DNA from: Terriglobia bacterium
GTDB taxonomy: Bacteria > Acidobacteriota > Terriglobia > 2-12-FULL-54-10
Direction of reading: 5' to 3'
DNA length: 64,000 nucleotides
Assembly: GCA_963666975.2 (NCBI GenBank)
Contig: CAXVYR010000004.1
Coordinates: 1,152,001-1,216,000, forward strand
The position numbers and the translations under genes were made by a program. The notes beneath the pieces are model-generated. The model searched no databases. It was not told the DNA's origin and worked only from the letters and a program-made list of their open reading frames with translations. Each line of letters opens with the position of its first letter. The stretch's first letter is position 1. Shown here in pieces: positions 36,946-52,860 of the stretch.

Positions 36946-39279
36946 TCAAGCAGATCGGGCGTTACTGATCTGCACCAATTGCGGTTCGGCGCGGACTGTG
37001 CCGAAGCTCAGGACATCCATGGGGCAGACGGTGACACAGACGCCGCAGCCGATGCAGGAGGAGTTGGCGTTGGTGATGGGCTCCTGTTTCAGCGCGAAGC
37101 TCATCACGTCGATGCCGACCAGGCAGTAGCGGCTGCACTCGCCGCAGGCGATGCACTTCTCGTTAGCGCTGATGCGGTATTGGCTGAACCGCAGCTTCTC
37201 GTAGAGGTGGCTCAGCAGCTCCATCATCTTGGCCAGCGGGCACCAGTAGCGGCACCAGACTTTCCCGCCCAGGAACGGGTAGAGCGTCAGCGGCAGAATG
37301 CCCACCAGCCAAATGTCTGCGACAATGCGATAAGCGTATAGCCCCCGTTCGGCGGGCGTACGGAGAGCCTCGAACACGTCCCGGCCCAGCATCATGACCG
37401 TGATGAGGACCGCCGCGATAAAGACCACCAAGGTCATCTTCTTCTCCCAGCGATGGCTGGCTTTTCCCTTCGGCGCCAAGTGGCGCCAGCGGTCGCCCAG
37501 CGTTTCGGCCAGCCCGCCGCAGCCGCAGATCCACGAACAGTAGCGTTTGCCGTGCCAGACGACCATCACCGGGATGATCCCAAAGGCCAGCACAACCCCC
37601 CAGATAATCCAGATCTGATGAGGGTCATAGAAGAACGTGTAGAAGAACAACGGCCAGGCGTAGACGATGCCGTAGGCGCGCCAGGGTTGCTCTGCGAACT
37701 GCGGGTCCGTGGCCAAGCGCTCGCCCACCCAGCGGTATTCAACCGCCCAGCGGAAGAGAAATTCCGGCACTATAAAAAAGAAAATCCACTGAAAACTGAT
37801 CAGGCTGGAGAAGCGCCAGATCTGGAATTTGTCCCGGCGGTCCAGGCCCCATCGCTTGAGCGCCTGGATTCCGAAAAAAGTCATCACCACGGTGTAGAAC
37901 ACCGTGTACCAGAATTGCAAGGGGCGGTCGGCGAATCTAAATAGCTCGTAAGCCCAACCGGTGTAGGGCCAAAATTCCTGCCCCGCACCCAGTTTGATGC
38001 CGTAGAGGGAATAAAAGCCGAAGAAGCCCGTGCCCAACCACGCCCAGCGTTGGCCGCGCACGGCCGTCGCCAACAGACCGGCGAAGGCCCCCGCCGCCAC
38101 CACGCCGCCAAGCCACTGGGGGATCTGCTGTACCAACTCCATCGAAGCGTTGCCCCCCAGCGCCCACAGGCCGAGCAAGGTGGCCAGCGTCAATAGGGCC
38201 GAGCGGGCCATACTGCCCGACCATTCATTTTCCATCTTCAACCCCAGCGACTTCAGAAACGCGGTCGGAACTTCAGAGCCGATCAGCACGAAGGCGTGGT
38301 CATAGGGGAATTTCTCGGTGGTCTGCTTGCCGTCTTTTTCGATTTGGAGGGTGGCCTCTCGGTCGCCGAACTCAGTGACCTGGGAGTTGAAGAGGGGCTT
38401 GATAGACCCGCTGCCGATCGCTTCCTGGAGCTGTCGCTCGTTGTCTTTGAAAATCCGGTAGAGCTGCTGGCCGCGATAGCTGAGCGTAACCTGGTTGCGC
38501 TGGCTCAAGGTGAGGGCGGCCTCGGCGGCCGTGTTTCCCCCGCCGACCACCAGAATCCGCTCGTCGTGGTACTGCTTGGGGCTATAGAGGCGATGATAGA
38601 CTCGCTCCTGGTCCTCGCCCGGTACGACCAGCTTGCGCGGGTTTCCCCGTTGCCCGGTGGCGAGGATGACGTTGCGGGCCTTGTACTGCTTTCCCTGCTC
38701 GGTCGTGAGGGTAAAGCTGTCGTCTTTGTTGCGGGTGAGGGATTTCAACCCATCTCCGGTGCGGACATCCAGGCCGTTGTCGCGGATGATCTGGTGCCAG
38801 CGCCCGATGAGGTCTTCCTTGGTGGCGCCGTCCAGCCAGAGTTTGCCCTTGGGCGGGACTTGGTCCGGCTCGGCGTAAATCCACTTTCCCTCCGGGAAGT
38901 CTTCAATGGTGTTGGCGATTTTGTTTTTTTCGAGGACCACGCACCGGAGGCCTTTGTCGGTGGCCGCCAGCGCCGCGTTCAGCCCGGCCGCCCCGGCGCC
39001 GACCACGACGGCGTCATAGGCCTCCGTGTCGTTCGATCCGGTGTCGCGCTGGCGGCCTTGCTGACCGCCGTGCTGACCGCCATACTGACCAATGATTTGC
39101 TCGATCACCTCCACGCCCTGTTCCATCGCCAGCTTAATCACCGGCGCCCCAGCCAAGTCCCCGATCACGTACAGGCCACGGAGATTCGATTCTCGTTTGG
39201 AGTCCATCTGCGGCCGTCGTGTGGGCATGTTGGCGGTTTCGAAGATTCCCTCGAACCACCGCTGGAGTTTGGTGAGCAT
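36946..39279 (-). CDS. TrxB-like FAD/NAD(P)H oxidoreductase fused to a polytopic membrane 4Fe-4S (NapH/NosR-like) domain
   Basis: VVVGAGAAG, ILATG, VVGGGNTA; YCSWICGCG, WCRYWCP; two CxxCxxCxxxC ferredoxin motifs. Confidence 0.85.
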   Translation of the reverse strand: MLTKLQRWFEGIFETANMPTRRPQMDSKRESNLRGLYVIGDLAGAPVIKLAMEQGVEVIEQIIGQYGGQHGGQQGRQRDTGSNDTEAYDAVVVGAGAAGLNAALAATDKGLRCVVLEKNKIANTIEDFPEGKWIYAEPDQVPPKGKLWLDGATKEDLIGRWHQIIRDNGLDVRTGDGLKSLTRNKDDSFTLTTEQGKQYKARNVILATGQRGNPRKLVVPGEDQERVYHRLYSPKQYHDERILVVGGGNTAAEAALTLSQRNQVTLSYRGQQLYRIFKDNERQLQEAIGSGSIKPLFNSQVTEFGDREATLQIEKDGKQTTEKFPYDHAFVLIGSEVPTAFLKSLGLKMENEWSGSMARSALLTLATLLGLWALGGNASMELVQQIPQWLGGVVAAGAFAGLLATAVRGQRWAWLGTGFFGFYSLYGIKLGAGQEFWPYTGWAYELFRFADRPLQFWYTVFYTVVMTFFGIQALKRWGLDRRDKFQIWRFSSLISFQWIFFFIVPEFLFRWAVEYRWVGERLATDPQFAEQPWRAYGIVYAWPLFFYTFFYDPHQIWIIWGVVLAFGIIPVMVVWHGKRYCSWICGCGGLAETLGDRWRHLAPKGKASHRWEKKMTLVVFIAAVLITVMMLGRDVFEALRTPAERGLYAYRIVADIWLVGILPLTLYPFLGGKVWCRYWCPLAKMMELLSHLYEKLRFSQYRISANEKCIACGECSRYCLVGIDVMSFALKQEPITNANSSCIGCGVCVTVCPMDVLSFGTVRAEPQLVQISNARSA

Positions 39280-39295
39280 TGTGCTGAATTGTGTT

Positions 39296-39862
39296 TTATT
39301 GGATGAACTGCTGCTTGCGCCAGCGGACGGCCTCGGATTCAAACGCCGGGATCGTCTGTCCGCCGCAGCCCAGGCAAGCGTCCCCGGAAGGGTGGTTGTA
39401 GTAGCCGCAGTGGGAACACTCCTCGGAATAGTGGGTGCACGGCACTTTCCGAAGGCCGCGAGGAATGCCGGCAGGAAATTGTCCGGCATCGCCCGGTGCG
39501 CGAGTCAGCAGGATCAGATAGCCCGCCGCATTCAGAAAAAACCCCAGAAAGAACCACGGAATCGGCGATAGAGCCTTATGCACCGCTGCTTGCGCGCAGG
39601 CTCCGGCGAAGATTAACCCGGCCAGGACGTAAACTCCGAGCATGAGCCATGCCGGCGACAGCGGCTGGCTGCTGGGTCCCTGCTCGCTGAACAGCGCGCC
39701 GCTCGGGCGGTCCGGGTCCGCTGGGGATTGCTGCGCCAGCGCAGCAAAAGGATTGATCAGGAAAACAGCAGTCAGGAAAACTGCGGCAAGACACAAAATA
39801 GAAAGACGCAAGCTTCTCGGCCCTCTCATGAGTTTTCTCCTGTTCTCAACGGCCGCTTTCAC
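39296..39862 (-). CDS. Membrane protein with C-terminal zinc ribbon
   Basis: Signal plus two TMs; CSHC...CLGC; ends 16 nt before the oxidoreductase start. Confidence 0.7.
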   Translation of the reverse strand: MKAAVENRRKLMRGPRSLRLSILCLAAVFLTAVFLINPFAALAQQSPADPDRPSGALFSEQGPSSQPLSPAWLMLGVYVLAGLIFAGACAQAAVHKALSPIPWFFLGFFLNAAGYLILLTRAPGDAGQFPAGIPRGLRKVPCTHYSEECSHCGYYNHPSGDACLGCGGQTIPAFESEAVRWRKQQFIQ

Positions 39863-39977: not shown

Positions 39978-40979
39978 TCACCCGGGAACTTCTGCGCCGA
40001 CCGTCTTCAAAACCAAATCCGCCATGGCCTGGATAAACTTCGGCGAATCGTTCAGTCCGGGCATCATCTCAAATTGCCGGAAGCCGGCCTGTAGCGCCTC
40101 CTCGCGCGCTTCGATGTCAATCTCATGCAGCGTCTCAATATGATCCGATACGAACGAGACAGGAACAACCAGCGCGTTCCTCACTCCCTCCGCGCCCAGC
40201 CGTGCAATGACCGCGTGCAGAGTGGGACCCAGCCAGCGCCCTGCTCCCACCCTGCTCTGGTAGCAGATCGTATGAGGAAAGGGCCAGCGGCCTCGTTCGA
40301 GGAGCAGCCGCACCGTGGCTTCCACCTGTTCCTGATAGGGGTCTCCGGCCTTAATGACGCTGATCGGCAGTCCATGCGCGCTGAAAATCATGTGTAACCC
40401 GCCCGGATGGGCGGATGAGCCGGCAAACTTTCCCACGCTCGAGTTTATTATTTCCACCACGGAATCGATATATCCCGGATCGTCGTGGAAGTCTTGAATC
40501 TTCCGGACGGGAACATTAGAGAAGGAGGAAGCTGGAAACTGCCTTCCCCATTCATTGAAGCTGCTGCCGGTGGTGGTCTTGGAGTATTGCGGATAGAGGG
40601 GCAACAGGATCAATTCGCTCCAGTCATCTTTGGCCAACTCGCGGAGGGCCTCGTCCGTCAAGGGATGCCAATAGCGCATCGCCACAACCACGCGGGCGTC
40701 AATGGACTTTTGCAACGCTTCTTCCAGCGCACGGGACTGCCTGCGGGTCCACTCCACGATGGGAGACTTGCCGCCGATGGCAGCGTATAACTTTTGAACT
40801 TTCTGGGCACGGCTTTTGGCCATCCGCCGGGCGAGGGGTTTACGAGCCAGCCTGGCCAGCGGAAAGTCGATGATATCCGGGTCCAAAAACAGGTTATGGA
40901 GAAAAGGCTCCACGGCCTCCAGGGAATCCGGTCCGCCCAACTGAAACAGCACAACGCCGACCTTTTTTCCCTCAGCCAT
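39978..40979 (-). CDS. hemH: Ferrochelatase
   Basis: QLGGP, AMRYWHP, LYPQYS..TTGSS, FSAHGLP, FVSDHIETLHEID. Confidence 0.97.
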   Translation of the reverse strand: MAEGKKVGVVLFQLGGPDSLEAVEPFLHNLFLDPDIIDFPLARLARKPLARRMAKSRAQKVQKLYAAIGGKSPIVEWTRRQSRALEEALQKSIDARVVVAMRYWHPLTDEALRELAKDDWSELILLPLYPQYSKTTTGSSFNEWGRQFPASSFSNVPVRKIQDFHDDPGYIDSVVEIINSSVGKFAGSSAHPGGLHMIFSAHGLPISVIKAGDPYQEQVEATVRLLLERGRWPFPHTICYQSRVGAGRWLGPTLHAVIARLGAEGVRNALVVPVSFVSDHIETLHEIDIEAREEALQAGFRQFEMMPGLNDSPKFIQAMADLVLKTVGAEVPG

Positions 40980-44248: not shown

Positions 44249-45671
44249 TTAGGGAAAGTTCGCGACACTTCGGGCCTCTCCTGTTAACTCCAGAATATGC
44301 ATGCCGGTGTTGGCGCGGTCAACTATGTAAATATACCCGCGGTCGTCCACTTCAACGTTATTGGTCTGGATGGCCACTTTGCACCGCTCCTCCCCGTCCA
44401 TTGTCACACAACGCCGGTCCGTATTCGCGGTGGTGGCCGGTATGTAGTAAGCGATCTCTTTTGGGGTGGAAGGGGTCCCGAATGTCCAGCGCGCGGACCC
44501 CCGCATTGAAGTAGGAGACAAAAACGATCCGCTTGTAATAGATCGGCGTGAAGGACTCGTTGGTGGCGTGCGGGCCGAAGCGCCCGCCCCGCTGGCAGAA
44601 TTCGCCCTCTGACTCAGGCACCTGATAGGTCGATACAGGCGTGGGCTTGGTTGGGTCCGTGATATCGATGAAGAATACAGCGTGACGGAACTCCTGGCAC
44701 TCATTCTGGGTGGATTCCGATGGCATCACAATGAAGTCCCGAACTTTTCCATACAGGTTGTCCTTGAAATCGGGAATCTCAATCCCCAAGACGGGGAAGG
44801 TAGTATGCCCTCCCCATGCAGGATTCATGTCTATGCGGCCGATTTGGGGATAGAGCAGGTTTTCCGGCGTCGGCTCGGGAGCCCCTCGCAGAAGTTTGTC
44901 CCGGTCTACGATCTGGATAATAGCGCCGCTCGATGAGCCGTAACCAAAGTAGACGCGGTCGTCCAGCACGATGGGTCCATGAAGGTCGGTGGGCACCTTC
45001 TCCATCTGCGAACCCGGCTCTTGGCCAACCAAACCGAAGTCCCGGATCAACACCGGCGCCTCCGGGTTGCTTAAGTCGAAAATTTTTGTTCCCCGGGCCC
45101 GCCAATCCGGGTCAGCGGAAACAATGTAAGCAATTCCGGTATCGCACTCCCACCAATTTTTGTGGATGCTCTTCATCCCGTCGACTACCTTGCTCAGGAA
45201 TTGCGGCTCGCTCGGAGAGGTGACGTTCCAGAGCTCGTGCCCCGCCGAGCCGATGCTGCGGAGCAGGTAGGCCTTCCCATCGATCATACAGGCGCGGTTC
45301 ATCTGCGCGCCGCTGCTCCCCCTGGTGATTGTTGCATCGCCGGGGATATGGGAAAGGCCCTGCGGGTTCCGAGGGTGGGTCACGTCCACGATCATCGTGC
45401 CGTTCGGCTCGACCGTCCCGCTCACGGGGTTAAAGGAGCTGCCACCCAGCAAGCCGATATAGGCGATCCAGCGGTTACCCTGCTGCAGGATGACGGGCTG
45501 GTAGGCGGAGCGGCTCTGGAGATCATGAAAACCCACGACTCGCATGTTCTTGCCTTCCGATCCGTGGCCTCCCAGACTTTGCTGCGCCGCCGCATCGCCC
45601 GCGCTCCAGGCCAACACGACGAAAAACACTGCTGTGGAAAAAAGCAATCCTCCCGGCAATCGTCGCGTCAT
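44249..45671 (-). pseudogene. Secreted LVIVD-like beta-propeller protein with +1 frameshift at about 44459-44462 (pseudogene or sequence error)
   Basis: IVDVTHP/IFDLSNP/IDITDP/LDIRDP repeats; removing one A from CCC-AAAA-GAG joins DPFHPK to EIAYYIPA in ORF 44249-44704. Confidence 0.8.
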
Positions 45672-45773
45672 CGTCTCTCCTCCCCCGGACACTTGAATGA
45701 GCACCTGAATCGCTGCATAAATTATCGGGCGTCTGATGCCTCGTCCTATCACTCGCCGGTACCCGCAGCCGCG

Positions 45774-48038
45774 TTAGAAAATTTCCGGGAAATAATACGT
45801 CATCACGGCATTGAGATACTTGTCCGAGACGATGACGGTCTTGTTCTTGGCGTCAAAAGTCACCCCGCGCGGCTGGCGCAACATCCCCTTTGGCCCTCCA
45901 ATCTTCCACCGCGGCGGAACGTCCCCGTTGTCCTCGAGGATGCTCCATACGCCCACAAAGGCCTCATTGGACGAAAGTCTTTCGCCCGGCCCGGACCCCG
46001 GACCCGGGACAGCCGCCAGGACCAAGCCACGGGGCGGATAGACCTGGATTCGCTGCGTTCGTGTGATACCTGTCTTGGGGCCGCTGATCACAGCTTTCGG
46101 TTTCACGTTACCCTCGTCGGTGCGGTTAAAAATCATCAGACCCCTTCTGCTGTCTCCTCCTTCCTCCCAGCTCGCCGACACGACAAGCAAGTTGTGGACC
46201 GGGTCCACGGCGACCTCGGTGGGACTCCACGGCGTGCCGGGGCCCTCCAGGATCCGGACCGGCGCTGCATTTCCATTTGCCTCCCGCGCAAAAACCAGGA
46301 CCCGGCTTGCCCCTCCCGCCTCAGGAACGAAAATCTCGTTGTGCACCGGATCGACCGTCACCTTGTCGGGATTCCTTAACAGCGTGCGGAGCCCCTGGAT
46401 TACCCGGATCGGGGACTCCTCCCCATCGGCTCCTCCACGGAACGTCATCACCGACTGGGAGAACGGCTGCGGCACCGTGATTTCATCATGGATCTCATCG
46501 TAGAAAATGCCGTGCATCGTCCGGCCCAACATTGTTTTTTGTCCCTCAATCTTCCGGTTCGCTGTGGCTCCCCCTTCCGCCAGCCTGGCGAAAGCCGCAA
46601 TCTGCGGGTGGGCCACTCAGTTGGGCACCAGTATCTCTGCCCGCTTGGTGTCATAGGTTACAGCGCCCGGATTGCCAATCATCAAAGACGGCTCGCCAAT
46701 CGGCGCGCTGCGGATCGTGCGCAGAGGCGGCGTGTCGCCCTCCGCTGTGGGTTTATAGACGGTCGCCGAGTGATTGCCGAAGTTGGCCACCCACAGCTCG
46801 TCATTCTTAGTGTCCAAAAACAGGCCCGTGGGATTTTTGATGCCGCTGTTGGGGCCTTTCAACACCCGAATGGGAGCCACGTCACCATTGGCAGTCGCGC
46901 GGAAGACCAGGACGGAATCTCCCTGGTCATTGGCAACAAACAGTTCCCCTCGCTCCGGGTCAACGGCAATTCCCGCCGCCCAGTTCAATTGGGTCCGGGA
47001 ACCTTCGATCACCCGCAACGGAGCAGCATTCCCGCTCGCGGTCCGGGAGTACACCGTGATCGAAGGCGGCACCGTCGTGCCCGAACCGGGGATCGCTACG
47101 TCCTCGCCCTTCGGCCAATTCGCTTTCCCTTTGGCTCTTCCGAGAGTTCCCTCCCCGTCGGCGTCCGCGCGATGTTGCCGGACCGAGCCGTGATTGGTGA
47201 CGTAGATGAGATTATTCTTCGTATCCACGGCAATGCCGTGGGGGTCCGCCAGGCGAGTGCGATCTCCCTGAAGCAGGCGGATGGGGGCATCGTCGCCTTC
47301 GGCCATCTTGTTGTATACCACCACCGCGTTGTCGTGCTGGATGGTGAGGAAAAGCTCCTCCCGCTGTTCATCCACCGTAATGCCAAAAGTCCCGTGCGGC
47401 GTGGCCAGCTGCCGCGTCGGAGGCACGTCCCCGTTGGCCTGGCGGTCAAAAATCACCAGTGTGTCCACCGTGTCGTTGTTGACGGCGTATATATCCCCGC
47501 TGGCCGGGTCAATATACAGGCCGCACTGAAATTCGATTCTCGTGTGTTCTCCCCCGATCTTGCGCTTTGGTTCGGTCATGGCCGCGTTGGGGGGCGTATT
47601 GTCCAGCCGGTCGTAGACCATAATGTTGAAGAAGCTTTCGTCCGTCATGACAACTTCCCCGCGCACCGGGTCCACCGCAACAGCGCTGTAGGAGGAATAG
47701 GGATCCCGAATGACCCGAAGCGGCGCTCTCGGGGCGGTTTCCTCGCCGCTGTTCTGAGCGACAGTCCGTGCCCCGCTGCCAGCGGAAAGCCTTTCCTGCC
47801 GCATGGCGGCCAGCAGCGTAGTGCCGGTGCTGGCGGGCACCCACTCGCACATTACCCCGTCCATCGCCGGCAAAGGCTCCACGGAGATCAGTTGAGGAGA
47901 CCCAGTAGGCCTCCGAGCCAAGACCGACAGCCTTTCGCCGGTGACCCCGCTGGATAGCACGAATCCGGCAAGAGTCCCGGTCACTGCGAGAATTGCAATC
48001 AGCAATGCCTTCCGTCGCAAATAAGATGCTTGCGCCAT
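45774..48038 (-). CDS. Exported multi-blade beta-propeller (NHL/lactonase-like) with in-frame TGA at 46617-46619; candidate 754-aa selenoprotein
   Basis: ORFs 46617-48038 and 45774-46616 are in the same frame with zero gap; repeat register continues across EILVPN*VAHPQIAAF; AGGAGGAGG RBS at first ATG, none at the GTG. Confidence 0.8.
46564..46616 (-). promoter_or_regulatory. Candidate SECIS-like structure immediately 3' of the in-frame UGA
   Basis: GUGGC...GCCAC basal stem enclosing CCGCA-GAU-UGCGG and CUUUCGCCA-GGC-UGGCGGAAG hairpins. Confidence 0.5.
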
Positions 48039-48145: not shown

Positions 48146-49594
48146 GAGGGTGTCCCATACATAGTTGAAGGTTGAACGGCGGTTCGGCCCGAATCGAATA
48201 GAATCGGGCCAAGCCTAAATCCTATAGAAGGAGAACCGCCGAATGAAGGGAAAATATCACGTTTTGGAACTGGGTTCCAAGGGAGCCGAAGAAACCATCC
48301 AGAAGTTTTGCCAAACCAACGGACAGATGCTGTTGCCGGTGGTGGATCTGATCACGGAGGCGCGTCTGGCGGTGGATGAGGTGATTGATCGGGCCGGGCG
48401 AGGTTTGATTGAAACGATTCTGAGCATGAGCGCAGAGCAAATCGCGGGGCCAAAGAGTCCCGGGAAGGCGAGCGGAGAGGTGCGCTGGCATGGCCGGCAA
48501 TTGGGGAGGGTGAAACTGGCCGATCGCCAGCTGCGGGTGGAGCGGCCCCGGCTGCGCCGGAAGGGCGGAGGGGAAGAAGCGGTGCCGGCCTACGAAGCAC
48601 TGCGGAAAAGCGAGAAGACGGGCGAGGAGATGTTCGAGGCACTGTTGAAAGGGGTTTCGACGCGGAACTACCGCGAGGTGATCCCGGAGATGGCCAACAG
48701 CGCTGGGGTGTCGAAGTCTCAGGTGAGCCGGGAAGCGGCCGAGCAAGGAGCGCGGCGGCTGGAAGAACTGTTGGCGCGGCGCTGGGAGGAGGTCGAGATT
48801 CTGGTGATTTACCTGGACGGAATGCGGTTCGGCTCCCACCACGTCATCAGCGCCGTGGGCGTGGACAGCGAGGGCCGCAAGCATGTGCTGGGGATTCAAC
48901 TGGGCGCGACCGAAAACGCCGCTGCGGTGAAAGACCTTCTCACCCGCCTGCGCCAGCAAGGTTTGCGCACGGATCAGCGCTATCTGTTTGTGATCGACGG
49001 CGCCAAAGCGCTCCGCGCGGGGATCGAGGAAGTATTCGGCAGCAATCAGCTGGTGCAGCGTTGCCGTACTCATAAGCTGCGCAACGTGGCTGAGCGGTTA
49101 CCAAAGGGCGACAAAATGCTGGCGAATCAGGTGCGGTCGCTGATGCGCGCCGCCTGGCGATTGCCCCAAGCCGAGGAAGGCATCGTGCGCATAAAAAAGC
49201 TCGCTGGGATGATCGAGTGCGATCATCCGGCAGCAGCCGCCAGCTTGCGCGAAGGGTTGGAGGAGACCTTTACGATCAATCGAGCCGACGTTCCTCCCAG
49301 CCTCCACCGCTGCCTGGCAACCACGAACCTCATCGAGAGCCCGCAGTCGGGCGTGCGGAAAAAGACTGGCAATGTTTGCCGCTGGCGCGACGGCGAGATG
49401 ACGTTGCGCTGGGTGGCAGGAGCGTTTCTGCTGACCGAGAAGAATTTCCGGAAGATCATGGGTTATCACGATCTCTGGGCTTTGGCATCGATTCTCGGCC
49501 GAAGTCCAAACGCTGCTTCCTCTCACAAGGAGGAAGTGGCGTAATATGAACTCAACCCGCCGTCCCAACCTGCAACTGAGTTTGGGACACCTTC
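48146..49594 (+). mobile_element. IS256-family element, copy 1 (1449 bp)
   Basis: TIRs GAGGGTGTCCCATAC/GAAGGTGTCCCAAAC; 8-bp TSD CCCGCGCG at 48138-48145 and 49595-49602. Confidence 0.95.
48243..49544 (+). CDS. IS256-family transposase
   Basis: GVSTRNY, IYLDG, VIDGAKAL, QRCRTHK and TTNLIES motifs. Confidence 0.95.
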   Translation: MKGKYHVLELGSKGAEETIQKFCQTNGQMLLPVVDLITEARLAVDEVIDRAGRGLIETILSMSAEQIAGPKSPGKASGEVRWHGRQLGRVKLADRQLRVERPRLRRKGGGEEAVPAYEALRKSEKTGEEMFEALLKGVSTRNYREVIPEMANSAGVSKSQVSREAAEQGARRLEELLARRWEEVEILVIYLDGMRFGSHHVISAVGVDSEGRKHVLGIQLGATENAAAVKDLLTRLRQQGLRTDQRYLFVIDGAKALRAGIEEVFGSNQLVQRCRTHKLRNVAERLPKGDKMLANQVRSLMRAAWRLPQAEEGIVRIKKLAGMIECDHPAAAASLREGLEETFTINRADVPPSLHRCLATTNLIESPQSGVRKKTGNVCRWRDGEMTLRWVAGAFLLTEKNFRKIMGYHDLWALASILGRSPNAASSHKEEVA

Positions 49595-49723: not shown

Positions 49724-51053
49724 CACTGCTGTCCGGCTAAAATTTCAGAACAGCCAACAAGTCTCATGAGAGCAAAAGGTTACGGGCATTGGAGCATTTT
49801 TCGATTTGAAATCCGCGAGGGCGAAAAATGGCTTTGAACGTAAAGACTGGGGTAGGCGACAGAAGAGTGCATGAACATCGGTCGCACCGTTTTCGCTCAG
49901 CTTATGGATCACGTGCCCTCGTACGAGTTTCACAAATGCGTCACGCGCTACCGTGGCGACGATCATCTGCGAAGCTTTTCTTGCTGGGACCAGTTTCTGG
50001 CGATGGCGTTCGCTCAGTTGACTTACCGCGAGAGTCTCCGCGACATCGAGGCGTGTCTGCGTTCCATGACCAGCAAACTCTACCACATCGGATTGCGCGG
50101 CAACGTGGCGCGCTCGACACTGGCCGATGCCAACGAGTCGCACGACTGGCGCATCTACGCGGACTTCGCCCAGGTGTTGATCGGCATCGCACGGCCTTTG
50201 TATGCGCGCGATCCGATCGGCGTCGATCTGGATCAGAGCCTGTACGCGCTGGACTCCACCACCATCGACCTCTGCCTCTCGCTGTTTCCGTGGGCACGAT
50301 TCCGCCAACACAAGGCTGCCGTCAAACTGCATACGCTGCTGGACCTGCATGGCAACATCCCCACGTTTCTCCGCGTCACGGCCGGTGCCGTGCACGATGT
50401 CAACATCCTCGACGAGATCGTTCCGGAAGCGGGCGCGTTCTACGTGATGGATCGCGGCTACATCGACTTCGAGCGACTCTTTGTCTTCACACTCTGCTCC
50501 GCATTTTTCGTCGTGCGGACGAAAGAGAACGTCTTGCTCCAACGCCGCTATTCTCATCCAGCAGACAGAACCAGCGGCTTGCGATCCGATCATACCGTGA
50601 TCCTGACCGGGAACGCCTCGGCCAGGGCATACCCCGATCCGCTACGGCGCGTTACGTACTTCGATGCAGAAACAAACAAGCGCCTGAAGTTTCTTACCAA
50701 CAATTTCGTGCTACCCGCACTCACTATCGCTCAAATCTACAAGTGCCGCTGGCAGGTGGAACTGTTCTTCAAATGGATCAAGCAGCACCTGCGAATCAAG
50801 GCATTCTATGGCACCAGCCAAAACGCCGTGAAGACTCAAATCTGGATCGCCGTTTCGATCTATGTACTCGTGGCCATTGTCCGGAAGCGTCTCGGTTTGG
50901 AAGCCAGCCTTTACCAAATTTTACAGATTCTCAGTGTTACTCTTTTCGAGAAAGTACCCATTTTACAGGCCTTGGAAGCATCGGGCTCCCCAGACGATTT
51001 AGTCAGAAATCCCAACCAGTTGATTCTGTTCGAGTTTTAACCGGACAGCAATG
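49724..51053 (+). mobile_element. IS4-family element (1330 bp)
   Basis: TIRs CACTGCTGTCCGGCTAAAA/CATTGCTGTCCGGTTAAAA; 9-bp TSD ATATTATGT at 49715-49723 and 51054-51062. Confidence 0.95.
49871..51040 (+). CDS. IS4-family transposase (DUF4372 N-terminus)
   Basis: ALDSTTIDL, VMDRGY, YKCRWQVELFFKWIKQHL (YREK). Confidence 0.95.
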   Translation: MNIGRTVFAQLMDHVPSYEFHKCVTRYRGDDHLRSFSCWDQFLAMAFAQLTYRESLRDIEACLRSMTSKLYHIGLRGNVARSTLADANESHDWRIYADFAQVLIGIARPLYARDPIGVDLDQSLYALDSTTIDLCLSLFPWARFRQHKAAVKLHTLLDLHGNIPTFLRVTAGAVHDVNILDEIVPEAGAFYVMDRGYIDFERLFVFTLCSAFFVVRTKENVLLQRRYSHPADRTSGLRSDHTVILTGNASARAYPDPLRRVTYFDAETNKRLKFLTNNFVLPALTIAQIYKCRWQVELFFKWIKQHLRIKAFYGTSQNAVKTQIWIAVSIYVLVAIVRKRLGLEASLYQILQILSVTLFEKVPILQALEASGSPDDLVRNPNQLILFEF

Positions 51054-51235
51054 ATATTATGTAAACCTCAATAAGTGGCTCAGGATTTCGTAAGCGCCCA
51101 AGTGCTGGACTGGAAAAACAACCACGTTATCGTCCTCGCCTGATTGGAACTGCTGGTAGATTACAGGAGGTGAAACGGCAAATCAATTGCTACGCAGGAA
51201 GGAGACCCCCAGGAAACAAGAAAAGCGAAAAGGGA

Positions 51236-51323: not shown

Positions 51324-52860
51324 GAAGGTGTCCCAAACTCAGTTGCAGGTTGGGACGGCGGGTTGAGTTCATATTACGCCACTTTCTCCTTGTGAGAGGA
51401 AGCAGCGTTTGGACTTCGGCCGAGAATCGATGCCAAAGCCCAGAGATCGTGATAACCCATGATCTTCCGGAAATTCTTCTCGGTCAGCAGAAACGCTCCT
51501 GCCACCCAGCGCAACGTCTCGCCGTCGCGCCAGCGGCAAACATTGCCAGTCTTTTTCCGCACGCCCGACTGCGGGCTCTCGATGAGGTTCGTGGTTGCCA
51601 GGCCTCATCTCGCCGTCGCGCCAGCGGCAAACATTGCCAGTCTTTTTCCGCACGCCCGACTGCGGGCTCTCGATGAGGTTCGTGGTTGCCAGGCAGCGGT
51701 GGAGGCTGGGAGGAACGTCGGCTCGATTGATCGTAAAGGTCTCCTCCAACCCTTCGCGCAAGCTGGCGGCTGCTGCCGGATGATCGCACTCGATCATCCC
51801 AGCGAGCTTTTTTATGCGCACGATGCCTTCCTCGGCTTGGGGCAATCGCCAGGCGGCGCGCATCAGCGACCGCACCTGATTCGCCAGCATTTTGTCGCCC
51901 TTTGGTAACCGCTCAGCCACGTTGCGCAGCTTATGAGTACGGCAACGCTGCACCAGCTGATTGCTGCCGAATACTTCCTCGATCCCCGCGCGGAGCGCTT
52001 TGGCGCCGTCGATCACAAACAGATAGCGCTGATCCGTGCGCAAACCTTGCTGGCGCAGGCGGGTGAGAAGGTCTTTCACCGCAGCGGCGTTTTCGGTCGC
52101 GCCCAGTTGAATCCCCAGCACATGCTTGCGGCCCTCGATGTCCACGCCCACGGCGCTGATGACGTGGTGGGAGCCGAACCGCATTCCGTCCAGGTAAATC
52201 ACCAGAATCTCGACCTCCTCCCAGCGCCGCGCCAACAGTTCTTCCAGCCGCCGCGCTCCTTGCTCGGCCGCTTCCCGGCTCACCTGAGACTTCGACACCC
52301 CAGCGCTGTTGGCCATCTCCGGGATCACCTCGCGGTAGTTCCGCGTCGAAACCCCTTTCAACAGTGCCTCGAACATCTCCTCGCCCGTCTTCTCGCTTTT
52401 CCGCAGTGCTTCGTAGGCCGGCACCGCTTCTTCCCCTCCGCCCTTCCGGCGCAGCCGGGGCCGCTCCACCCGCAGCTGGCGATCGGCCAGTTTCACCCTC
52501 CCCAATTGCCGGCCATGCCAGCGCACCTCTCCGCTCGCCTTCCCGGGACTCTTTGGCCCCGCGATTTGCTCTGCGCTCATGCTCAGAATCGTTTCAATCA
52601 AACCTCGCCCGGCCCGATCAATCACCTCATCCACCGCCAGACGCGCCTCCGTGATCAGATCCACCACCGGCAACAGCATCTGTCCGTTGGTTTGGCAAAA
52701 CTTCTGGATGGTTTCTTCGGCTCCCTTGGAACCCAGTTCCAAAACGTGATATTTTCCCTTCATTCGGCGGTTCTCCTTCTATAGGATTTAGGCTTGGCCC
52801 GATTCTATTCGATTCGGGCCGAACCGCCGTTCAACCTTCAACTATGTATGGGACACCCTC
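51324..52860 (-). mobile_element. IS256-family element, copy 2 (1537 bp, with 88-bp internal duplication)
   Basis: Same TIRs as copy 1; 8-bp TSD CCTAAAGG at 51316-51323 and 52861-52868. Confidence 0.95.
51369..52763 (-). pseudogene. IS256 transposase with frameshifted C-terminus
   Basis: Near-identical to copy 1 up to WRDGEM; 88-bp duplication at 51517-51604 shifts the frame. Confidence 0.85.

Follow-up and report, generated by a model that had tools for sequence, protein, structure and literature searches.

Gene organization at the locus

The window considered here, a stretch of 64,000 nucleotides from a Terriglobia bacterium (GenBank assembly GCA_963666975.2, contig CAXVYR010000004.1, positions 1,152,001 to 1,216,000 of the forward strand), carries on its minus strand two open reading frames (ORFs) that abut in one frame around a TGA codon. 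ORF 1 (48038-46620) begins with ATG, encodes 473 amino acids and ends in the TGA at 46617-46619; ORF 2 (46616-45774) follows directly after the TGA with the frame unchanged, encodes 280 amino acids and ends in the TAA at 45774-45776. Taken together, 48038-45774 is one frame of 754 codons plus TAA in which the lone in-frame TGA is codon 474; across the junction it reads ...AEILVPN-U-VAHPQIAAFARLAEG..., where U is residue 474. A first-pass annotation, made from the letters of the window, had proposed that the two ORFs form a single selenoprotein, and its interpretation is largely supported by the comparative analysis described here: the gene very probably encodes one 754-residue protein, a double propeller of the NHL type, into which we infer that selenocysteine (Sec) is inserted at UGA474. 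The features of the gene, and of the gene that follows it, are listed below.

45774-48038, minus strand: whole putative selenoprotein gene, 754 codons plus TAA with one in-frame TGA; homologues match residues 1-754 in one frame.
47961-48038, minus strand: residues 1-26, an RRK motif followed by a hydrophobic N-terminal helix (signal peptide or signal anchor); helix 2-26 in the AlphaFold2 model.
47847-47849, minus strand: Cys64 codon, in a low-confidence tether (residues 28-99; predicted local distance difference test score, pLDDT, <50); Cys in 40 of 46 Sec-family sequences.
47706-47717, minus strand: strand 108-111, the apparent clasp closing the last blade of propeller 2; blade 12 has three strands in the DSSP list.
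46710-47690, minus strand: propeller 1, six-bladed and of NHL type, with blades 1-6 in residues 117-443; from the AlphaFold2 model, a structural match and Pfam NHL.
46617-46619, minus strand: UGA codon 474, probably read as Sec, from conservation of the TGA/Cys column.
46595-46607, minus strand: conserved hairpin H1, CCGCA-GAU-UGCGG, 9 nt past the UGA; -5.3 kcal/mol, z -3.6, 87.2% of alignment cells paired.
46574-46594, minus strand: hairpin H2, the probable bacterial selenocysteine insertion sequence (bSECIS), whose 9-bp stem carries a GGC loop with A-U as the closing pair; -11.1 kcal/mol, z -3.06, 95.6% of cells paired.
45792-46658, minus strand: propeller 2, blades 7-12, residues 461-749, with Sec in the B-C loop of blade 7, from the AlphaFold2 model and structural matches.
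46512-46523, minus strand: codons Arg506-His509 (R-T-M-H), on the loop that enters blade 8; co-conserved with Sec/Cys474.
44358-45752, minus strand: downstream gene for a 464-residue exported protein of no Pfam family; starts 21 nt past the selenoprotein stop.

Conservation of the UGA codon and its replacement by cysteine

Codon 474 was tallied in 122 distinct gene sequences, comprising copies from the window's family, copies from named metagenome-assembled genomes (MAGs), and 80 metagenome loci. It is TGA in 110, TGC in 11 and TGT in one; all 122 copies thus have either TGA or a Cys codon, the pattern that the first-pass annotation had named as support for its proposal. The TGA stands at the identical position in all 110 TGA genes, in the context LVPN-U-VAHPQIA, a recurrence well beyond what chance would give. 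A six-frame search of the window genome (4.23 Mb in 4 contigs, 98.9% complete) recovered eight full-length copies of 57-63% identity with one TGA apiece, together with one internally deleted copy and several fragments, and 148 of the 150 listed matches from 40 relatives hold exactly one TGA, the other two holding none. When residues 431-530 are aligned to the loci, the TGA column is identical in 25 of 25 distinct Sec copies of the window's family; two uninterrupted copies from the family (L050 and L051) have TGC in this column. On named MAG contigs, which are assigned to Terriglobia, Vicinamibacterales, Acidobacteria gp2 and gp6, and one bin labelled Betaproteobacteria, 29 further copies with 36-95% identity all have TGA at column 474. 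The locus binned as Betaproteobacteria (L057, contig JACQOK010000314.1; 54% identity, with TGA and both hairpins) could represent a mis-binned contig or a transfer outside Acidobacteriota.

In a collection of 5.8 billion proteins, at least 1843 proteins, between 414 and 1320 residues long, align to residues 400-754 at E ≤1e-10; in the best 120 full-length homologues among them residue 474 is Cys in 119 and Trp in one, the latter perhaps a TGA translated as Trp. From a library of clusters at 50% identity came 149 new representatives, of which 24 end exactly at ...LVPN and 4 begin at [MV]-x-HPQIA, an indication that public gene callers split the Sec forms at the UGA codon. Among 98 diverse representatives that cover the site, 19 have Cys and the remainder are generic NHL proteins. 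A column that holds TGA or Cys is the standard Sec/Cys signature.

Continuation of the coding sequence past the UGA

If the UGA were a true stop, the locus would encode two proteins (473 and 280 amino acids), or would represent a broken gene or an assembly error. This is how gene callers annotate such loci, with some representatives ending at ...LVPN and others beginning just past it, and Atlas clusters of ~430-500 and ~273-303 amino acids fit as well, as a lead only. The identical column in 110 distinct genes, down to 36% identity, argues against a true stop, as does selection against amino-acid change that persists downstream of it. Relative to the orthologue L033, the differences downstream of codon 474 number 30, 21 and 66 at codon positions 1, 2 and 3; the third-position bias recurs in six of six homologue comparisons, and the residues past 474 that are ≥97% conserved in 46 Sec-family sequences include R495, G499, R506, H509, D518 and E519.

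The second piece also lacks the context of a start. The first-pass annotation had noted that ORF 2 has no ribosome-binding site and would begin within a blade; inspection by eye indeed found no Shine-Dalgarno-like purine run upstream of its GTG, which is the conserved Val475 of all homologues, the uninterrupted Cys forms included. In blade 7, residue 474 falls after strand B (468-473) and before strand C (479-484), so ORF 2 would begin mid-blade, and strand 108-111 of the first piece completes blade 12. The blade register does cross the stop as had been claimed, since a tblastn search with residues 431-530 aligns internal blade repeats (...ELFVAN-D.GDSVLVF...) with ...EILVPN*VAHPQIAAF. Contigs assembled from DNA runs of three studies (X2, X4, and X6, one of them possibly the source of the assembly itself) span 46602-48038 or 46602-47659; they show 0-2 differences, and the TGA is unchanged in each. 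The comparative sequence data, to which the existence of uninterrupted Cys forms belongs, already contradict a true stop, and we regard it as the most improbable of the readings considered here.

In metagenome contigs from three studies, summed depth rises to ~190-370 over 46534-46685, the segment with the UGA and the hairpins, from ~10 on either side, and contigs break at ~46602. This is the behavior of a short high-copy repeat, as dozens of paralogues in one genome share the UGA and SECIS segment almost letter for letter.

RNA hairpins downstream of the UGA

Elements of the bSECIS type are described as having a loop of 3-9 nt with G in its initial two positions, a stem of 4-16 bp, a spacing of 16-37 nt from the UGA, and a minimum free energy of -7.5 kcal/mol or lower (PMC13188914, section 5). 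Hairpin H2 lies within each of these limits, with its 9-bp stem, a GGC loop that starts 31 nt past the UGA, and -11.1 kcal/mol. The first-pass annotation had predicted G-looped hairpins after the UGA closed by a GUGGC/GCCAC stem; the hairpins exist, and H2 is the candidate for a functional SECIS, whereas the outer stem is present in the window copy only and is lost even in orthologues with 89% identity.

Both hairpins covary. In an alignment of 50 TGA-bearing sequences (25 family copies and 25 of the 29 MAG copies, four being left out as duplicates) 92.6% of cells pair overall, compared with 34-49% when the partners are slid by 1-3 columns, and changes on both sides of a pair occur in 56 cells against 21.3 in shuffles, with none of 500 shuffles reaching 56. 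At the H2 pair 33-45, 31 sequences have C-G and 19 have U-A, and the two columns are synonymous third positions (TTC/TTT and GCG/GCA). H1 occurs as CCGCA/UGCGG, CCGAG/CUCGG, CCGCG/CGCGG, and CCAG/CUGG, with double changes from CG to AU and from AU to GC. The H2 loop is GGN in 106 of the 110 TGA genes, and the Arg codon that supplies the GG is AGG in 106 of 110; elsewhere AGG is an infrequent choice for Arg, at 9% in the eight paralogues and 8% across the genome.

Cys-codon genes differ in how much of H2 they keep. Ten metagenome loci (L130, L134, L138, L140-L144, L154, and L156) have a near-intact H2; only the diverged L050 and L051 have lost both hairpins. In several of the ten the GG of the loop is degraded, AGG having become AGA or CGA, and the loop GG is retained in 6 of all 12 Cys-codon genes. 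From their sequences the ten look like recent Sec-to-Cys conversions in which H2 is a decaying SECIS relic.

Selenocysteine machinery and proposed decoding

Genes for Sec synthesis and insertion are present in the window genome, as the first-pass annotation had anticipated: selD (349.5 bits), selA (563.5 bits), and selB (371.8 bits) all score above curated cut-offs, as does tRNA-Sec (72.8 bits), which ARAGORN calls tRNA-SeC with anticodon TCA. The selD gene (L001, G000:C4:1360322-1361257) itself contains one in-frame TGA, as it does in the relatives G001 and G007, and SelD of the window genome is for this reason taken to be a selenoprotein. The genome uses the standard code, with TGA as a normal stop, since 305 of the 821 ORFs with 500 codons or more end in TGA. 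Co-occurrence with selA was rejected as a discriminator because selA is found in 35 of 41 genomes of the class, carriers of the family or not.

Several observations weigh against the Sec reading. Ten of the 12 Cys-codon genes retain at least 8 of the 9 H2 pairs, and part of H2 may follow from the conserved peptide F-A-R-L-A. Taken as a whole, the region past the UGA folds with ordinary energy (z -0.44 over 76 nt, -0.86 over 46 nt), so that the RNA evidence is one of conservation and covariation, and the shuffle statistics overstate independence because the sequences are related paralogues. An Rfam scan of 46450-46700 at E up to 10 gave no match; no Rfam model for bacterial SECIS elements of this type is known to us, and for that reason the result carries no weight either way. 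The selA gene was not found in G001 (95% complete, with ~22 TGA copies) or in G007 (78% complete); selB and a selD with a TGA are present in both, and tRNA-Sec scores 74 bits in G001, and we assume that the selA misses are assembly gaps. Contigs from RNA libraries are only 90-95% alike to the window gene and are not proof of its transcription; at this identity they come from genes of a relative, and DNA carry-over is also possible; stretches uncovered in run X19 carry no weight. Finally, selenium in the protein is deduced from the comparison of sequences.

Some of these points would also suit a UGA that is read through without Sec, for example by near-cognate Trp or Cys, with hairpins that promote read-through or follow the conserved peptide. 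The H2 stem kept in 10 of 12 Cys-codon genes and the one database homologue with Trp474 can be cited for it. We nevertheless consider it very unlikely. Uninterrupted homologues carry Cys, the classic partner of Sec (119 of 120 database homologues and 12 of 12 genes); the loop GG is present in 106 of 110 TGA genes as opposed to 6 of 12 Cys genes, as expected for contact with SelB; the full Sec machinery is present, and H2 fits bSECIS geometry.

Under Sec insertion, SelB with Sec-tRNA(Sec) would be recruited by the 9-bp, GGN-loop hairpin 31 nt past UGA474; Sec would be inserted at position 474, and translation would then continue for 280 residues.

Protein fold and co-conserved residues

The AlphaFold2 model, made with 83 sequences (pLDDT 89, predicted template modeling score 0.85), is one continuous double propeller, in keeping with the single 754-residue protein and the blade-loop position of residue 474 put forward at the outset. 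It consists of a helix (2-26), a low-confidence tether (28-99), and twelve four-stranded blades, of which blade 12 has three strands, with strand 108-111 left over. Pfam NHL (PF01436) matches at 45.4 bits against a cut-off of 20, and the other Pfam matches are to beta-propeller repeats only. The best structural match is the NHL domain of TRIM2 (Z 29.9, root-mean-square deviation (rmsd) 2.3, 250 residues aligned over 112-432), followed by TRIM71, SOQ1, NHLRC2, PknD, and PAL; the matches to the Lin41 NHL domain (Z 28.3) and PAL (Z 26.1) span residues ~95-750. Single-propeller structures match either residues 112-445 or ~95-754, which points to two six-bladed NHL propellers with an N-terminal strand clasping the second; because this strand completes the last blade, a product ending at residue 473 could not close propeller 2. 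A whole-protein Foldseek comparison with the PDB was uninformative, returning generic tandem propellers only (TM 0.16-0.31).

Residue 474 directly follows strand B of blade 7, and the next D-A loop holds R506 and H509. The B-C and D-A loops of beta-propellers share one face, where active sites usually lie. By this loop topology Sec474 would adjoin the invariant Arg506 and His509 in the model. H509 is present in 46 of 46 Sec-family sequences, and both residues accompany Cys at position 474: in the listed diverse Cys474 representatives R506 is found in 18 of 18 and H509 in 17 of 18, as against 3 of 27 and 0 of 27 in the listed generic NHL proteins without Cys474. The sole other conserved Cys is Cys64 (40 of 46 Sec-family sequences, and nearly invariant in alignment A1). 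The first-pass annotation had suggested the Cys of IEFQCG (C172) as a possible partner of Sec; this residue proved variable (C in 29, A in 16, and S in one of 46), and it is Arg506, His509, and Cys64 that travel with Sec/Cys474 instead. H267 (45 of 46) and H423 (44 of 46) are also conserved in the Sec family. Redox motifs of the CxxU or UxxC kind do not occur near residue 474.

The model suggests a location outside the cytoplasm. Export by the Tat pathway is not supported, although the RRK of the window copy resembles a twin-arginine motif: an RR pair within the N-terminal 40 residues is limited to 20 of 46 Sec-family sequences and 36 of 83 sequences of alignment A1, some starts being guessed, and no TAT model matched in an NCBIfam scan.

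Copy number, distribution, and genomic neighborhood

The 40 relatives include 13 genomes of the same family, of which 11 have strong matches (up to 31 per genome), one a weak match, and one none; among the 27 genomes of the class that belong to other families, strong matches are absent and there is a single weak one at E 4.6e-6. TGA-bearing copies number 27 in the single-contig, 3.8-Mb genome G003 and ~22 in G001. A survey across the phylum gave a match at E 1e-50 in 1 of 400 further genomes of the sample; as only two candidates per genome were scored, this indicates patchiness in the sample and not absence. The family is found in Acidobacteriota MAGs from groundwater and soil.

Copies in the window genome include L030 (G000:C4:2003482-2005033), in which residues 7-204 are joined to 450-754 and the TGA and both hairpins are kept; this internally deleted copy is probably a pseudogene. 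L023 and L028 (G000:C3:768183-772940) are tandem copies 280 nt apart, and tandem pairs are also seen among the MAG loci L061, L062, L064, L065, and L073.

Upstream of the window gene are two Mutator-family (PF00872) transposase genes at 48243-49544 (plus strand) and 51369-52763 (minus strand). Between them lies a 408-residue ORF of no family (49828-51054), which recurs beside a pair of paralogues at G000:C3:778804-779943. The downstream 464-residue protein has an N-terminal signal-like segment and a weak match to a choice-of-anchor B model (28.5 bits against a cut-off of 100); its gene (44358-45752) was rejected as a family-wide operon partner, being single-copy in the genome and found beside the closest orthologues only.

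Neighbors were scanned at loci L022-L077, with flanks of only 1.5-3 kb, and are read here as context that does not prove a function. Outer-membrane barrels of the TonB-dependent type that carry a CarboxypepD_reg domain come first, at 12 loci; DASS symporters (5 loci), LigXa-like Rieske oxygenases (5 loci), and Class II aldolases (4 loci) also recur, and Amidohydro_3 proteins are present in four neighborhoods in the window genome. Elsewhere in the window, 36946-39489 (minus strand) encodes an 847-residue protein with pyridine-nucleotide-disulfide oxidoreductase and 4Fe-4S ferredoxin domains; the gene adjoins a ferrochelatase gene (39978-40979) and has no evident link to the selenoprotein.

Proposed function

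The product would comprise an N-terminal membrane helix, a flexible tether of ~75 residues with Cys64, and a pair of six-bladed NHL propellers clasped to each other. An extracytoplasmic redox enzyme is suggested by the Sec/Cys pair, by the Arg and His conserved along with it, and by neighborhoods rich in transporters; in this enzyme Sec474, replaced by Cys in many relatives, would be the catalytic residue; Cys64 may be the resolving partner, and the substrates are probably brought in by the TonB-dependent outer-membrane transporters that are often encoded nearby. Put more specifically, the family may form an uncatalogued class of extracytoplasmic selenoenzyme with a Sec-His-Arg center on a tandem NHL propeller, where compounds imported through TonB-dependent transporters would undergo redox (or metalloid) chemistry; this proposal is a tentative one, for which we claim less than even likelihood. 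It has to be weighed that the closeness of Sec474 to Arg506 and His509, like the function and the role of Cys64, is deduced from loop topology.

Alternatively, the protein may be a genuine selenoprotein in which Sec474 is a ligand of a metal or metalloid, together with His509 and possibly H267 and H423, and not a redox nucleophile. These histidines are conserved in 46, 45, and 44 of 46 sequences, respectively, a CxxU or UxxC motif is absent around residue 474, and many catalogued selenoproteins are metal-related (formate dehydrogenase, hydrogenase, and metal-binding entries; Table 1, PMC13188914). The structural neighbors of the window protein include PAL, a metal-dependent propeller enzyme. 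H267 and H423, however, are in propeller 1 while residue 474 is in propeller 2; Arg506, which travels with Cys474, suits the handling of a substrate or anion better than metal binding; and among the recurrent neighbors no metal-site motif or cofactor-maturation gene was seen. A ligand role is on balance unlikely, and the catalytic role of Sec474 is the one that we favor.

Implications

By the Sec/Cys-pair principle, reportedly set out by Fomenko et al. in 2007 (Science), a position that alternates between Sec and Cys is said to mark a catalytic redox residue. On this principle residue 474 would be the first functional handle on at least 1843 Cys homologues. These go by database names such as "YncE", "lactonase", and "SMP-30/gluconolactonase/LRE"; the lactonase and YncE names reflect similarity at the level of the repeat and are not evidence of function. 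Catalogues split the Sec genes at the UGA into pieces of ~470 and ~280 amino acids (named "hypothetical", "lactonase", or "YncE"), and for this reason the family is invisible to selenoproteome surveys based on known families.

If the more specific, tentative proposal made above is right, 8-27 Sec paralogues per genome would place an uncultured family of soil and groundwater Terriglobia among the most selenoprotein-rich bacteria through a single protein family, and selenium supply would be a major, overlooked constraint on the physiology of these organisms. With a cassette of UGA and SECIS that is near-identical among the paralogues, a single SelB may be able to serve dozens of genes. For bacteria the record is 57-63 selenoprotein genes in a genome, counting all families (PMC13188914), and the most selenoprotein-rich bacteria are predominantly anaerobes (PMC13188914, section 10).

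Comparison with known systems

As far as could be checked, the family is uncatalogued as a bacterial selenoprotein, in agreement with the first-pass annotation, to which no characterized bacterial selenoprotein family with this fold was known. Among the 119 prokaryotic selenoprotein families of Table 1 in PMC13188914 there is no entry for a propeller, an NHL protein, a lactonase, or a YncE-like protein; the terms propeller, NHL, YncE, lactonase, and Acidobacteri are absent from PMC13188914 and BSepDB, and from the deep-Sep paper save for a single "Acidobacteriota" in its genome list. NCBIfam (release 20.0) has neither a selenoprotein model nor a specific model that matches the window protein, and none of the families of Haft & Tolstoy 2025, as they appear in the PMC13188914 table and NCBIfam, match it. 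A literature search found no description of a propeller or NHL selenoprotein; the family may be included in Deng et al. 2026 (Cell Rep 45:116760), who applied deep-Sep to 44,000 groundwater MAGs and, in the account given by PMC13188914, reported unvalidated "potentially novel candidate selenoproteins".

Pfam matches to lactonases are weak and partial. SMP-30/gluconolactonase/PON families give Pfam matches of 24.6 bits (PF10282, residues 343-429) and 24.8 bits (PF01731) that cover one or two blades, lactonase structures match at Z 22-25, below the NHL domains, and the YncE model NF052280 scores 21.7 bits against a cut-off of 400. With the six-bladed NHL propellers of TRIM2/TRIM71/Brat, PknD, NHLRC2, SOQ1, and PAL the fold is shared (Z 26-30, rmsd 2.2-3.0 over ~250-276 residues), but identity to the solved NHL structures is only 14-24%, and the window protein differs from them in having two clasped propellers in one chain with a membrane helix. 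It is set apart from generic NHL proteins by the signature [NS]-[UC]-V...R-x-x-H, which is found in the 18 listed Cys474 representatives (His509 in 17 of them) and whose His509 is found in none of 27 generic ones. NHLRC2 and SOQ1 have a fused thioredoxin-like domain; the window protein has no thioredoxin-like Pfam match and resembles only their NHL domains.

Among selenoproteins of the cell envelope, the TonB-dependent receptor with an FCYXU motif, the DsbA/DsbG-like proteins, and the thiol:disulfide interchange selenoproteins (Table 1, PMC13188914) are similar in having Sec outside the cytoplasm, as is proposed for the window protein, and in a link to TonB-dependent uptake loci; the protein described here has an unrelated fold without UxxC or CxxU, and the transporter is its neighbor, not the selenoprotein. 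The E. coli formate dehydrogenases are the classic case of decoding through a bSECIS. Bacterial selenoproteins decoded in this way (PMC13188914) share with the window gene a UGA aligned with Cys, a G-loop stem 16-37 nt downstream within the coding sequence, and selA/selB/selC/selD; they differ from it in that here the fold and family are uncatalogued, two conserved hairpins are present instead of one, and the element is near-identical across paralogues. Whereas most catalogued prokaryotic selenoproteins are small thioredoxin-fold proteins (PMC13188914, section 7), the candidate is a 754-residue, membrane-tethered double propeller with Sec in a blade loop and 27 copies in a 3.8-Mb genome: its Sec decoding is canonical, and its fold, size, location, and copy number are unusual.

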